The notes beneath the pieces were generated by a model, which was not told the origin of the DNA, did not search any database, and was given only the letters and a program-made list of their open reading frames with translations. DNA of 19,706 nt, from IMG/VR virus record IMGVR_UViG_2617270940_000004, positions 1 to 19,706 of that record; one strand, 5' to 3'. A program made the translations under genes and the position numbers. The DNA is from a virus. Its lineage: Duplodnaviria; Heunggongvirae; Uroviricota; Caudoviricetes. Shown piece after piece: positions 6,710 to 9,582 of this stretch. How positions within the stretch are numbered: the first letter of the stretch is position 1; every line of letters begins with the position of its first letter.

Positions 6710-7303
6710 ATGATCGCAGCCGAAAAAATCAAAAAGCGAGAGCGTGATGCCTCTCTTCGCGACCTTTGGCGCACACCGCAGTGGTTGTTTGTCGCCATCC
6801 AACGTTACATAGGCGTAAAGTTCGATGTGGACGTCGCCTGCAACAAAGATAATGCTCTCCTGACGAACTTTATCGGTGTTGAGCGTGATGCGCTCAAGTG
6901 CAGTTGGGGAGAACCTGGCACTGTGGCGTTCCTTAACCCGCCCTACTCCAAAATCACCCCCTGGATAGATGCAGCCATTCGCGAGCAGGCGCGTGGAGTG
7001 ACGACGGTCATGCTGATACCACAATCCCTCGATACGCAGTGGTACGAGCGTGCGGCTGAATGCGCCAACGAAACCGTCATCTTGTCTGGCGGCCGCGTGG
7101 CGTTCGTTGAGCCGGATGTTGAACTTGGGCTGGTGGAGGTGAACATCAACCCTGGTGGCAGCATGTTGCTTATCTTCCGTGGCTACTGTCAGGAAGCTGG
7201 GCACACCATCAGCAAGATACCGCTGGCGGTGATGAAAAAGCTGGGTGGTTATGACCCTGCCAATGTTGTCAGGAAGAAGAGACCACGTAAAAAGGCAGCG
7301 TAA
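6710..7303 (+). CDS. Orphan DNA N6-adenine methyltransferase (phage Dam-like family, NPPY motif)
   Basis: 197 aa; DLWRTPQWLF ... FDVDVACN ... GTVAFLNPPYS follows the layout of phage-type N6-adenine MTases; no restriction endonuclease gene adjacent. Confidence 0.75.
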   Translation: MIAAEKIKKRERDASLRDLWRTPQWLFVAIQRYIGVKFDVDVACNKDNALLTNFIGVERDALKCSWGEPGTVAFLNPPYSKITPWIDAAIREQARGVTTVMLIPQSLDTQWYERAAECANETVILSGGRVAFVEPDVELGLVEVNINPGGSMLLIFRGYCQEAGHTISKIPLAVMKKLGGYDPANVVRKKRPRKKAA

Positions 7304-7505
7304 ACACCAGTCTGGGAGTTAGTTTGAGAACCTGCTTCCGTATATATAAATAACTAAGTACTAATTATTAATATATACAGACGCAGGCTTTTTAAGACGT
7401 GATTTCCAAACAACTCCCAGACCGTTTTACACCTCCAGAACCCACTGGAGCCCCTCTCCAGACGCTCTAGAATCGATTTTATGAACCACAGTAAGGAAAA
7501 CTATC

Positions 7506-7736
7506 ATGGTATACCCGACGAACGTCGTAGCGCTCGTTGAGAGCGATTTTCTGGCCACAGTGCGCGACATGATGAAAGATCGCGATAAGGCTTTCAGTCT
7601 CTACGAATGGTCGCTCAAATGTCTTCATTCAGGCGAGCACAAAGAGCTGGTGGAGCAGCTGTTAGGGGAACTCATCAATGAGGTGTTTGCCCTGAACGTC
7701 CAGCTTCATGGGCGAGAAATTAATCAATCAATATAA
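7506..7736 (+). CDS. Hypothetical small protein (76 aa)
   Basis: ATG with AAGGA 8 nt upstream; stop codon overlaps the family A palindrome at 7736-7755. Confidence 0.5.
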   Translation: MVYPTNVVALVESDFLATVRDMMKDRDKAFSLYEWSLKCLHSGEHKELVEQLLGELINEVFALNVQLHGREINQSI

Positions 7737-7755
7737 TAGGTAAGTACTTACCATT
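7736..7755. promoter_or_regulatory. Family A palindromic site (putative operator)
   Basis: ATAGGTAAGTACTTACCATT; core GGTAAGTACTTACC is a perfect 14 bp palindrome. Confidence 0.55.
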
Positions 7756-8330
7756 CAAAACGCCACTAACCAGTGATACAATCTATCCGCTTCCGGATAC
7801 TTTCGGCAGCTCGACCTGATGGGTGGGGGATAGCGTCACTGGCGTCAGGTTTAAAAAAGCTCACTACCAGCGTAGAACCGGCACCGTTTAGGGGTTGGGG
7901 AAGGGGGAACCAAAGTGGGCAGAGAGAAGGGTCACTTTATGATTGTCGAGTCTGGAGTGTTTCGAGAGGTTGAATCCAGTACTCCCCTTCATAAAGTGTG
8001 GGAAGATCTCGGTTCTGGGGTGCTGTCATCCATAACTTCCCAAGCCTAAGCTGGCAGTAGACTTAGGTCATAACTTTTCAGGTTATGAAACGACCAGGTT
8101 GGTGAGGAAATTTTGTACTCACCTCCCTGGGAGAGTATTACCTGAAAAGACAACCTCTCACTTCGTTCGAGGTGAACTTCACTCACTTCGTTCGTTCAGT
8201 TCAGGTTTTATTAAAACCTGTTCTGGGAAGTAATTTTTCTTTTCTAAAAAATTTTTAATATTTACACGCACGCGTGCGCACACGCGCGAGGGGAAAAAAA
8301 ATCGTCGCGGCGCGCGATTCTGGAGCCAAA

Positions 8331-8939
8331 ATGACGACCAAGACCCCAGCCCGGCAACATACTGGCTGCCGCACGAAGTCCAAAGCCAGATACCAAACCC
8401 ACCAGCAATCCCGTACCAACTTCAAAACCCCCGTAGTCGAGTTCAATCCCCAGCTCAAAACCGTAAAAGTATTCAGTGATGGCTCCTGCCTCAAAAATCC
8501 GGGCGGGCCGGGCGGTTACGGCATCGTTCTCCAGTATCGAGGCGAAGAGCGCGAGCTTTCTGAGGGCTTCCACAGCACGACCAACAATCGGATGGAGATG
8601 ATGGGCGCCCTGATTGCGCTGGAGCGTCTGAAGTACCCCTGCAACGTGATCCTGCATTCCGACAGCCAGTATCTTAAAAACGGCATGACGCTCTGGATGA
8701 AAGGCTGGAAGCGTAACGGATGGATCACGTCTGAGAAGAAGCCAGTCAAAAACGTGGATCTCTGGAAACGTCTCGACGCGGCCGCCAGTCGTCATAATGT
8801 CCGCTGGAAGTGGGTTAAAGGCCATGCAGGTCATCGCGAGAACGAAATGTGTGACCGTCTGGCGAAGATCGCCGCCTATTCCGCAGCTGATATGCCTCAC
8901 AAGCATGACATTGGGTTTTTGTCACAAAAAGATAAGTAA
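8331..8939 (+). CDS. rnhA: Ribonuclease HI homologue with ~45 aa basic N-terminal extension
   Basis: [75 protein letters not shown] and [20 protein letters not shown] match recalled E. coli RNase HI blocks. Start set at ATG 8331 (GGAG 5 nt upstream); ORF is open from 8274. Confidence 0.8.
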
Positions 8940-8951
8940 GTATTTACCTAC
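8932..8951. promoter_or_regulatory. Family A palindromic site (putative operator)
   Basis: ATAAGTAAGTATTTACCTAC overlapping the RNase H stop codon (TAA 8937-8939). Confidence 0.5.
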
Positions 8952-9031
8952 TATAATAAATCAGGTATCTTATAAATCGTCAGGATGACGAAGTACCGGT
9001 TAGGTACGGTTCCAGGATGGAACGCCAAAAG

Positions 9032-9052
9032 GCGGCTGGCTTGGCCAGCCGC
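9032..9052 (+). terminator. Hairpin, weak terminator candidate
   Basis: Stem GCGGCTGGC / GCCAGCCGC with loop TTG, followed by AACTCTTTCT (poor U-tract). Confidence 0.3.
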
Positions 9053-9081
9053 AACTCTTTCTGACACTGAATGGAATCCAC

Positions 9082-9582
9082 ATGGCCCGTCAAACGTCTT
9101 TCACTTCTTTCAATAAACGTCCCCGTTCAATTCGCCTGGTGCTGACCGAGCTGTTTAGTGGTCGTGTTTCCGCACGCCTTACGGAACTGGAAGAACGAGT
9201 GTTTGAACTGGAGAAGCGCATTAATGCGCAAGCTACCGCCATAGCTAATCTGGGCACGACAGTAGGCATGGAGAAGGTGCGTAATAGCGTCGCTTCTCGT
9301 GTGTTGCGTGAAACCCGGACACACAAGGACAGTTCTCATGGAAAATTTTCAACGAAATCGACTGAAGCCAATGGCCTACGGAGTGATTTTGGCAACTCTG
9401 GCAGCGATTACCGTACCAGCCGGTCAGAGCCTTTTGATGCCGGGCACAGCTACTTCCACTGCCACCACAGCCTTGCAGATGACACCCCTGCCCGAACGAC
9501 CTCCTGTCTCTCTGGATGGGATGCTGATGGACACGATTCCAGCTCGACCTGCGACTCCGGATCTTCCTTCTGCTGTGACTGA
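9082..9582 (+). CDS. Hypothetical protein with predicted coiled-coil segment; 3' half doubtful
   Basis: 166 aa ORF; residues ~30-75 (RLTELEERVFELEKRINAQATAIANLG) look coiled-coil; C-terminal third is S/D/G/C/H-rich and overlaps an alternative-frame ORF (9338-9595), so the 3' extent is uncertain. Confidence 0.35.
   Translation: MARQTSFTSFNKRPRSIRLVLTELFSGRVSARLTELEERVFELEKRINAQATAIANLGTTVGMEKVRNSVASRVLRETRTHKDSSHGKFSTKSTEANGLRSDFGNSGSDYRTSRSEPFDAGHSYFHCHHSLADDTPARTTSCLSGWDADGHDSSSTCDSGSSFCCD

Follow-up and report, generated by a model that had tools for sequence, protein, structure and literature searches.

The window analysed here is the whole 19,706-nucleotide (nt) stretch of the viral record IMGVR_UViG_2617270940_000004. 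It contains a large gap between an open reading frame (ORF) of 76 amino acids (aa) and the RNase HI gene rnhA, and within this gap lies the putative structured non-coding RNA (ncRNA) that is the subject of this analysis. The gap extends from 7737 to 8330, and the rnhA start codon is located at 8331. The 1.5 kb around the gap match Salmonella phage SSU5 at 97% identity and SSU5-like phage-plasmids of E. coli and Klebsiella at 80–89% (80–82% in phages in which 7810–8325 is 88–97% identical). By its sequence, the window is a phage-plasmid of the SSU5/pHCM2 type. In SSU5, the region belongs to a long plus-strand block of genes for replication and nucleotide metabolism that comprises nrdAB, thyA, a dihydrofolate reductase gene, an exonuclease gene and dam. 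The gene order after dam is the 76-aa ORF, the gap, RNase H, small ORFs, an anti-repressor and methyltransferases. A previous inspection of the letters alone, referred to as the sequence-only reading, had regarded the gap as a candidate origin or ncRNA. The features of the locus are as follows.

7506–7736, plus strand: 76-aa ORF (SSU5_089, phrog_5343), the sole constant immediate neighbour of the RNA.
7754–7782, plus strand: predicted sigma-70 promoter from a consensus scan, with the −35 element TTCAAA (7754–7759), a 17-bp spacer and the extended −10 element TGaTACAAT (hexamer at 7777–7782).
7789–8246, plus strand: putative structured ncRNA of about 445–460 nt, with a conserved body to 8232, a U-rich tail at 8234–8245 and a candidate 3′ end.
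8233–8330, no strand assigned: variable spacer that travels with the RNA module, composed of an AT-rich part (8233–8263), an alternating GC tract with a palindrome (8267–8278), CGCGCGAGG with an A-run (8283–8301) and a GC hairpin.
8331–8939, plus strand: RNase HI gene rnhA, 202 aa, with the catalytic domain at residues 44–182 (Pfam RNase_H, E = 7e-46).

Homologues of 7737–8331 were recovered by blastn in 687 PLSDB plasmid records from Klebsiella, Escherichia, Enterobacter, Salmonella, Citrobacter and Cronobacter. Among 5,426 complete E. coli genomes, 232 (4.3%) carry the element, nearly always on plasmids of 108–114 kb, and the RefSeq annotation of these 232 genomes shows nothing at its position. 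Within the main clade of homologues, 7811–8232 is 91–100% identical; 7810–8325 is 88–97% identical among the plasmid blastn matches. Compared with the E. coli and Klebsiella lineages, the approximately 320 nt from 7911 to 8232 are 95–98% identical and 7789–7910 is 77–88% identical, whereas in dam, the 76-aa ORF and the catalytic domain of RNase H only 43–57% of third codon positions agree in the same lineages. In a nine-genome alignment, the fraction of invariant columns was 0.7–0.98 at 7825–8205 versus about 0.6–0.65 in the flanking genes, and 0.3–0.5 at 7740–7810 and 8205–8330. The RNA is the most conserved sequence in the approximately 1.9 kb compared across lineages (7200–9100), above the protein genes. 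The functional unit begins at about 7754 with the promoter, and the strongly conserved part stops at 8232. The spacer that follows (8233–8330) is 60–75% identical to its counterparts in the E. coli, Klebsiella and AnCo3 lineages. No other part is less conserved, and deletions are tolerated here: pHCM2, for example, lacks 11 nt of the tail.

The statement of the sequence-only reading that no convincing ORF occupies the gap held in the comparison of 56 distinct homologues. Each ORF of at least 25 aa on either strand is disrupted in 16–48 of them, and indels of 1–2 nt are located inside the conserved block. The ORF at 7915–8049 is intact in 39 of the 56 sequences. Two public annotations overlap the RNA: CYRAN_81 of Cyrano (44 aa, window 7915–8049; locus L002, 3503–3637), called a 'hypothetical protein', and the N-terminal extension of SSU5_090 'Rnase H' (locus L001, 9775–10539), whose start was called approximately 157 nt upstream of the conserved ATG. 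Since the ORFs are disrupted and indels occur inside the block, both annotations look like artefacts.

Because the main clade was too uniform, a second group of homologues, clade B, was sought through the 76-aa protein and found in Enterobacter-type 110-kb contigs. The RNA profile scores approximately 170 bits there versus approximately 590 bits in the main clade, and the clade B RNA is 60.6% identical to that of the window. The −10 pattern T-A-n-n-A-T of the predicted promoter is kept in every lineage (TACAAT, TAAAAT, TAAGAT, TAATAT, TAGGAT, TAGAAT or TAACAT) in variable surroundings, clade B having TTTACC-17-TGcTAACAT. Seven bases past the −10 element, G7789 is invariant and represents the predicted +1. 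The hairpin beginning there is free in sequence: its arms are GCUUCCGG.../...UCGGCAGC in the window, GCUGGCAGAU/AUCUGCCAGC in locus L068 and GUUUCCAGUC/GACUGGAGAC in Cyrano, with double-sided changes in four of seven pairs (for example pair 22–45: CG 22, UA 18, AU 11, UG 5). In clade B, a hairpin of different sequence occupies the same 5′ place. Free sequence with conserved structure in a 5′-terminal hairpin is typical of stable bacterial RNAs. The loops of the 5′ and 3′ hypervariable hairpins displayed no mutual complementarity across lineages, as read from the alignment.

RNAalifold on the 56 distinct main-clade sequences predicted 129 pairs with 99.6% of cells paired. Double-sided changes affected 13 pairs and 159 cells, compared to 1–4 pairs and 5–22 cells in slid controls, and none of 500 shuffles reached the observed value. 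When five clade B sequences were added, 99 pairs were predicted, 27 of which carried double-sided changes in 113 cells, against 1–5 pairs and 2–13 cells in slid controls. The covariation score was 0.314 versus at most 0.094 in the controls and was again reached by none of 500 shuffles. Compensation was found in H2, H3, the 7933–7998 domain, H12/H13, H14, H16 and P_b. Between the clades, 45% of the unpaired columns are invariant, at 61% identity overall. G·U pairs account for 11–13% of the paired cells and series from G·C to G·U to A·U are present, whereas the same helices read on the minus strand are only 86–89% paired. The minimum free energy (MFE) is −166 kcal/mol on the plus strand (z −4.6) versus −137 kcal/mol on the minus strand, 29 kcal/mol lower on the plus strand. 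The retention of G·U pairs and the lower MFE on the plus strand indicate selection on a plus-strand RNA and not on DNA hairpins. The predicted helices, all on the plus strand, are listed below.

7789–7810: 5′-terminal hairpin of hypervariable sequence, starting at +1 and forming a hairpin in every lineage.
7816–7848: helix H2 (CUGAUGGGUGGGG/CGUCACUGGCGUCAG), with compensatory pairs in both alignments.
7860–7919: G-rich domain closed by H3 (CUCACU/AGUGGG), three of six closing pairs being compensated between clades.
7933–7998: hairpin domain H8–H10 (CACUUUA/UAAAGUG, inner CUGGA/UCCAG), with covariation.
7999–8042: helix H12 (UGGGAAG/CUUCCCA) around H13, with covariation and a conserved large loop, GAUCUCGGUUCUGGGG.
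8044–8068: hairpin H14, with double-sided changes in five of ten pairs.
8069–8148: long irregular hairpin arm H15/H16, with two compensated pairs in H16; paired over its full length in clade B.
8154–8172: hairpin P_a, CCUC (8154–8157)/GAGG (8169–8172), stem invariant in both clades, its 11-nt loop UCACUUCGUUC representing repeat copy 1.
8173–8203: hairpin P_b, UGAACU (8173–8178)/AGUUCA (8198–8203), with covariation, its loop holding repeat copy 2 (8182–8194).
8197–8225: 3′ hairpin with the 19-bp palindrome (core 8202–8220), compensated within the main clade.
8223–8245: CUGGGAAGUA (8223–8232), invariant in the main clade, followed by a U-rich tract; candidate termination region.

Several helices changed in concert between lineages. 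The inner CUGGA/UCCAG of the 7933–7998 domain is CUGGGA/UCCCAG in loci L004 and L005 and CCAGAC/GUCUGG in clade B; between the clades, three of seven pairs are compensated in H12 and one of five in H13. Two alternatives to H15/H16 are also compensated, a local pairing of 8069–8075 with 8081–8087 and a long-range pairing of AGG (7928–7930) with CCU (8141–8143). All features listed by the sequence-only reading were found at the positions it gave: the 13-nt direct repeat CTCACTTCGTTCG (8157–8169 and 8182–8194), the 19-bp palindrome CAGGTTTTATTAAAACCTG (8202–8220), which can be extended to arms at 8197–8210 and 8212–8225, the AT-rich tract (8233–8263), the alternating GC tract with the palindrome CGCACGCGTGCG (8267–8278) and the local hairpin CCTAAGCTGGCAGTAGACTTAGG (8045–8067), which corresponds to H14. 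We count them as real because they are conserved, with compensatory substitutions in several of the listed hairpins. The repeat alone is weak, as 17 of 200 shuffles of the window gave at least two matches at up to two mismatches.

In the 3′ third, the repeat can be folded so that two adjacent hairpin loops display it. The P_a loop of clade B is UCACUCCGUUC, one base different, and P_a is the MFE structure in that clade. In P_b, three of six pairs are compensated, clade B having GAAACC/GGUUUC with the loop UCACAUUCGUUCG. In clade B the 13-mer repeat is imperfect, copy 2 being 7 nt short; the loop sequences of this clade thus indicate that a loop motif, CAC.UYCGUUCG, displayed twice, is conserved rather than a DNA repeat. 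A competing fold exists in the window in which CGAGGUGA pairs with copy 2 and ACUUC of copy 1 with the invariant GAAGU at 8227–8231, and in which the palindrome hairpin also forms. The predicted competing folds in the 3′ third and at 8069–8148 may represent either a switch or model uncertainty. The arms CAGGUUUU/AAAACCUG of the 3′ hairpin are replaced within the main clade by CAGGG/CCCUG, or by CAGGGA/UCCUUG with a G·U pair. Clade B keeps UUCUGGG of the CUGGGAAGUA region. The U-tract is weak in the Klebsiella lineage, and a terminator scan called no canonical terminator; judged from the sequence, it is plausible that the tail following the palindrome hairpin is a non-canonical terminator.

A discrete transcript, which the sequence-only reading had proposed to look for by RNA-seq, is present in published data on the Cyrano lysogen. 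A re-annotation and RNA-seq study of E. coli LF82 placed CYRAN_81 among the prophage loci 12-fold above background (PMC9928086). The values below are from Table 1 and S1 Table of this study and are given as normalised fragments per kilobase per million reads plus five (FPKM+5) in LB, followed by the range of log2(FPKM+5) over five conditions.

CYRAN_80, upstream ORF: 9.5; 3.1–5.8.
CYRAN_81, inside the RNA: 117; 6.8–10.35.
CYRAN_82, rnhA: 8.4; 2.6–5.0.
CYRAN_45, putative repressor: 95.8; 6.4–10.35.

The RNA was approximately 12 times more abundant than the upstream gene, and abundance dropped more than 10-fold before rnhA. Its signal was high in all five conditions and tracked that of the putative repressor CYRAN_45. 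The phage-plasmid is present at about five copies per cell in lysogens (PMC9928086). In the same table, two further 'hypothetical proteins' of Cyrano (OV696614) stand out in lysogens, CYRAN_43 (40268–40822) 723-fold and CYRAN_40 (39144–39356) 15-fold above background; these might also be RNA genes or small morons.

All constant neighbours of the RNA are located upstream: the exonuclease gene, a 267-aa ORF, dam and the 76-aa ORF, the latter always about 500–730 nt upstream of the RNA 3′ end. The 76-aa protein is without Pfam match and belongs to a PHROG of unknown function; its AlphaFold2 model consists of three helices and gave no fold match in the PDB. As an RNA-binding partner it was rejected as uninformative, there being neither a Pfam nor a fold match. 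The downstream side is variable. The RNA is intact where rnhA has been replaced (loci L076, L064 and L077) or truncated at its 5′ end (L282–L284), the recombination breakpoints of the replacements lying at about 8278–8299 around the CGCGCGAGG motif. No RNase H follows in clade B, in which the next gene encodes either a Tad2-like protein (anti-Thoeris family, weak Pfam match) or a protein without Pfam match. Conversely, RNase H without the RNA occurs in decayed remnants only. The functional tie to the adjacent RNase H that the sequence-only reading had suggested is therefore not borne out, since adjacency is lost where rnhA is replaced or truncated and in clade B. The putative RNA stands where the conserved replication module gives way to a variable accessory region.

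No match at the gathering threshold was obtained in the whole window with Rfam 15 (4,227 models, among them C4/c4-CI, IsrK, RNAI, 6S, tmRNA, RNase P, ROOL, GOLLD, OLE, raiA and HEARO). In E-value mode (E up to 10), 7300–8500 and 7785–8250 yielded spurious miRNA matches only, and the loci of clade B and L297 were also without Rfam match. A search of the available papers found no description of an RNA at this locus. In size and context the RNA resembles the ROOL, GOLLD, OLE and raiA classes, which likewise measure several hundred nt, contain many helices supported by covariation along with conserved unpaired segments, and reside on mobile or prophage elements without coding capacity or known function. 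It differs from them in the absence of any Rfam sequence or structure match, in occurring in Enterobacteriaceae and not mostly in Firmicutes and others, in its narrow range of one phage-plasmid family and in being expressed in the lysogenic state. There is also a resemblance to RNA II of ColE1 and its origin, namely a folded G-rich transcript of approximately 500 nt with conserved structure, followed by an A-run, with RNase H nearby. However, the locus is not the replicon (IncFIB RepA), the link to RNase H is not conserved, and the part that would correspond to the origin is the least conserved. No counterpart of the antisense RNA I was detected: there was no RNAI match, and the scan gave no minus-strand promoter/terminator pair over 7789–7900.

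By context, the immunity RNAs of phage-plasmids are closest. In P4, a constitutive leader is processed to the CI RNA, whose pairing with the two repeats seqA and seqC prematurely terminates transcription of the replication genes (PMC4825925). Like P4 CI, N15 CB and P1 c4, the RNA would be made while the phage-plasmid is in its prophage or plasmid state, from a promoter that is constitutive, and its gene precedes lytic or anti-repressor genes. The main-clade repeats at 8157–8169 and 8182–8194 flank the complementary CGAGGUGA in a manner reminiscent of seqA-seqB-seqC, and in both cases transcripts stop before the downstream genes. In contrast to these RNAs, which are processed to stable species of about 70–90 nt, it shows no homology to them, is 5–6 times larger, has lost the layout in clade B and is followed by variable genes. 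The 6S RNA of lambda PR′-tR′ and StxS are short terminated lysogen RNAs from an always-on prophage promoter that can act in trans (PMC7547250). They are short, weakly structured and precede a late operon with a Q-binding site, whereas the RNA described here is approximately 450 nt long and under far stronger constraint. Type III toxin-antitoxin systems of the ToxI/ToxN kind consist of tandem repeats of 34–45 nt, a terminator and a toxin gene of the ToxN/CptN/TenpN family. This candidate was rejected: at the locus, 13 of every 25 nt are repeated, only twice, and the next gene is RNase HI or variable. The RNA is closest in kind to the large orphan structured RNAs and closest in context to the phage-plasmid immunity RNAs and is a member of neither; we rate it as a new family within a known kind.

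Taken together, we consider it likely that about 7754–8246 is a self-contained gene of SSU5/pHCM2-type phage-plasmids for a structured plus-strand ncRNA of approximately 450 nt that acts as an RNA. In this model, the host sigma-70 promoter with its extended −10 element would fire at the invariant G7789. The RNA would begin with the hairpin whose pairing is preserved in spite of free sequence, would then fold into at least 12 helices, many kept by compensatory substitutions, and would end in the hairpin region and the U-rich stretch ahead of the next gene. The Cyrano lysogen contains it at repressor-like levels, with both neighbouring genes nearly silent, and it presumably works as an RNA in trans in the plasmid-prophage state. 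The ncRNA half of the sequence-only reading is thus strongly supported, by promoter, compensatory pairs and transcript; its proposals of an origin, a transfer origin or a single-strand promoter are not. As findings that would speak against it, that reading had named a protein-coding frame conserved in homologues or the lack of any transcript; no such frame occurs in the homologues and a transcript is present, both answers favouring an RNA.

Several observations weigh against this interpretation. The covariation comes from few independent lineages, two clades and their sub-lineages, so that the cell counts overstate the number of independent events, and the phylogenetic range is narrow with one phage-plasmid family in two clades. 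For the 87-nt stretch that contains P_a and P_b, the competing fold has −25 to −27 kcal/mol in the window versus −9 to −10 kcal/mol for the twin hairpins; these are the MFE structure only in clade B, the alternative three-way junction of the window being approximately 15 kcal/mol stabler. The 5′ and 3′ ends are predicted from sequence, and the RNA-seq value, which counts the reads of a single 135-nt 'gene' in one strain, may not be strand-aware. A canonical intrinsic terminator, with a U-run directly after the stem, is not evident in every lineage, and the transcript might therefore be a leader whose downstream part is unstable or terminated by Rho. In the SSU5 genome, complementarity to the RNA at the 11-mer level did not exceed chance and no conserved pairing target was found. 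No partner protein was identified among the neighbouring proteins by Pfam, PHROG or fold comparison.

The main rival explanation sees the element acting in cis, as a leader or attenuator that may be P4-like. The constitutive promoter would drive an operon of rnhA and the variable genes beyond, with termination in the leader in lysogens and read-through in the lytic phase, or else a small immunity RNA like those of P4, N15 and P1, which terminates nascent transcripts, would be processed from the leader. On this view the abundant RNA is the terminated leader itself. The more than 10-fold fall in abundance ahead of rnhA would be expected from such a leader, as would the mutually exclusive alternative pairings in the 3′ third; in addition, no sigma-70 promoter for rnhA itself could be recognised within 100 nt downstream of the RNA, the flanking of CGAGGUGA by the main-clade 13-mers resembles the P4 arrangement (PMC4825925), and an anti-repressor gene is located 1.6 kb downstream in the window. 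However, the gene that such a leader would control is not conserved: it is rnhA, a Tad2-like gene, a gene whose product has no Pfam match, or a small plus-strand ORF with a lipoprotein gene on the minus strand behind it. Clade B does not have the perfect order of repeat, complement and repeat; there, as read by eye, the RNA module is followed by good sigma-70 promoters for the next gene. Neither C4 nor IsrK nor any other Rfam family matched even at E up to 10, and mere termination would not explain approximately 320 nt of near-invariant sequence. We regard this explanation as unlikely.

Considerably less probable is a replication origin at which the transcript primes synthesis, the repeats bind an initiator, the AT-rich tract melts and RNase H processes the primer, as in ColE1 or in R-loop initiation of T4. 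A structured G-rich transcript of approximately 450 nt followed by an AT-rich tract and the purine run GAGGGGAAAAAAAA is superficially similar to ColE1 RNA II, the element is located within a replication and nucleotide-metabolism module, and RNase HI adjoins it in the main clade. The sequence-only reading had taken direct repeats next to an AT-rich block as origin anatomy, but not a single DnaA box (TTWTNCACA) was found in 19.7 kb against 1.8 expected, and the 13-mer occurs in two copies only, with none elsewhere in the window or in the SSU5 genome; an iteron origin would have at least three. The AT-rich tract at 8233–8263 varies in length and sequence and carries indels. Carrier plasmids are typed IncFIB or rep_cluster_488, and SSU5_069, annotated as 'replication helicase' (59.4–60.5 kb) and presumably RepA, is located approximately 18 kb away, placing the replicon elsewhere. 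RNase H is not adjacent in clade B and at several main-clade loci, and strong expression in lysogens at approximately five plasmid copies per cell does not suit an activator of a lytic origin. The phage encodes a DnaB-like helicase, a primase and a polymerase of the Pol III-alpha type and does not depend on Pol I; the cumulative GC skew is monotonic without inflection at the locus and is uninformative. We can give hardly any credence to another kind of DNA-level site whose hairpins would act in DNA, whether in transfer, as an Frpo/ssi-like single-strand promoter, in recombination or in packaging. Such a site would fit the many inverted repeats and the large intergenic region, but 677 of the 687 carrier plasmids are typed non-mobilizable, only the plus strand retains the G·U pairs and the transitions from G·C through G·U to A·U, the element is preceded by a conserved double-strand promoter directed into it, and the terminase genes, presumably along with the packaging site, are approximately 25 kb away. 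Just as improbable is protein-level conservation of one or more small genes such as CYRAN_81 or the SSU5_090 extension: annotators did call coding sequences here and 7915–8049 is often intact, but each candidate ORF is disrupted in at least 16 of the 56 homologues, substitutions are paired across helices and not concentrated at third codon positions, frame-shifting indels occur in the block, and PGAP calls no gene in 233 E. coli records.

For an RNA gene acting as RNA, the near-invariant unpaired segments suggest a specific partner, either protein or RNA, and the twin loops in which the motif can be displayed point in that direction too. The RNA looks more like a scaffold, a decoy or a riboregulator of lysogeny or host interaction than like a DNA-level site. 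To our knowledge, bacterial RNAs of about 450 nt under such structural and sequence constraint are rare. Those that are understood are mostly ribozymes or cores of ribonucleoproteins. A more speculative extension, which we hold as a tentative possibility, is that it is the founding member of a new class of large RNAs and a core lysogeny-expressed factor, serving as a ribonucleoprotein scaffold, a ribozyme or an effector of immunity or anti-defence. In that case, the twin loops and conserved junctions could serve, for example, to bind a small signalling molecule or a dimeric protein of host or phage. Phage-plasmids of the SSU5/pHCM2 type are common in clinical E. coli, Klebsiella, Enterobacter, Salmonella (including pHCM2 of Typhi) and Citrobacter, and phage-plasmids have often been described in the literature to carry resistance genes. 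Made during carriage and not during lysis, the RNA is a candidate controller of phage-plasmid maintenance, immunity or host interaction. Its recognition would correct the annotations of CYRAN_81 and of the SSU5_090 extension and provides a well-delimited target for Rfam and for genetics.

Further searches for partners and relatives gave little. Pairing of the repeat motif with the ribosome-binding site of SSU5_112 (92405) was rejected, as it is kept in the E. coli lineage and absent in the Klebsiella lineage despite the invariant motif. Neither the 13-mer nor the GC palindrome nor any other conserved block recurs in the SSU5 genome. Inspection by eye only gave no match that was convincing or kept between clades to a CsrB-like sponge, a CRISPR-repeat mimic, a tRNA-like structure, an anti-Shine-Dalgarno mimic or ops, boxA or put elements. 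A pattern scan of genome contigs for distant homologues returned two Kluyvera contigs, a decayed Buttiauxella remnant and one chance match only, and the metagenome scan mostly unrelated repeats plus close copies; locus L041 was dismissed as a chance 19-mer match. The search from RNase H loci revealed no RNA beside distant RNase H genes, loci L255 and L264 being decayed remnants. In the Buttiauxella gaviniae remnant (locus L089, 4812–5170), a deletion joins a metallophosphoesterase ORF (SSU5_073-like) in frame to the RNA at 7911; what remains of the RNA region, its 3′ 365 nt, is approximately 99% identical and lacks the promoter. In locus L005, the flanks are 97–99% identical to the window (7200–9100), yet the RNA is approximately 92% identical and carries the distant AnCo3 hairpin variant (CUGGGA/UCCCAG); this mosaicism indicates that RNA alleles are exchanged by recombination.

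The junction after the RNA is a hot spot of gene replacement (8233–8330; locus L076, 860–1900; locus L295, 3760–4250), with rnhA in most genomes and, in L076, a small plus-strand ORF followed by a minus-strand lipoprotein gene. CGCGCGAGG with its A-run (8283–8301; L292, 3761–3775; L295, 3765–3782) is located approximately 55 nt past the RNA body and is kept in both clades. On the minus strand, 8305–8317 contains the terminator-like TCGCGCGCCGCGA, followed by CGA and T8 and pointing off rnhA into the spacer, with no minus-strand gene evident. The first approximately 45 codons of rnhA (8331–8465) encode a basic, low-complexity N-terminal extension that is hypervariable, with 8–12% invariant columns at 8350–8424, and the catalytic domain is 86–100% identical at the protein level across the family. 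Just past the dam stop codon, 7331–7396 contains a 57-nt AT-rich hairpin (CCTGC...GCAGG) followed by CTTTTT, which is terminator-like and gave rise to spurious miRNA matches in the E-value mode of Rfam. In loci L297 (3226–3938) and L298 of a sister lineage, the slot after a homologue of the 76-aa ORF with 71% identity is occupied by a G-rich non-coding stretch of 450 nt, followed by a long AT-rich tract. This stretch shows no sequence similarity to the RNA and no Rfam match, has a comparably extreme folding z-score of −5.5 and is followed by two RNase H-like genes. It may be a non-homologous analogue of the RNA; if that is true, the two would be functional analogues, which would point to an exchangeable RNA cassette where the replication module borders on a variable anti-defence region.

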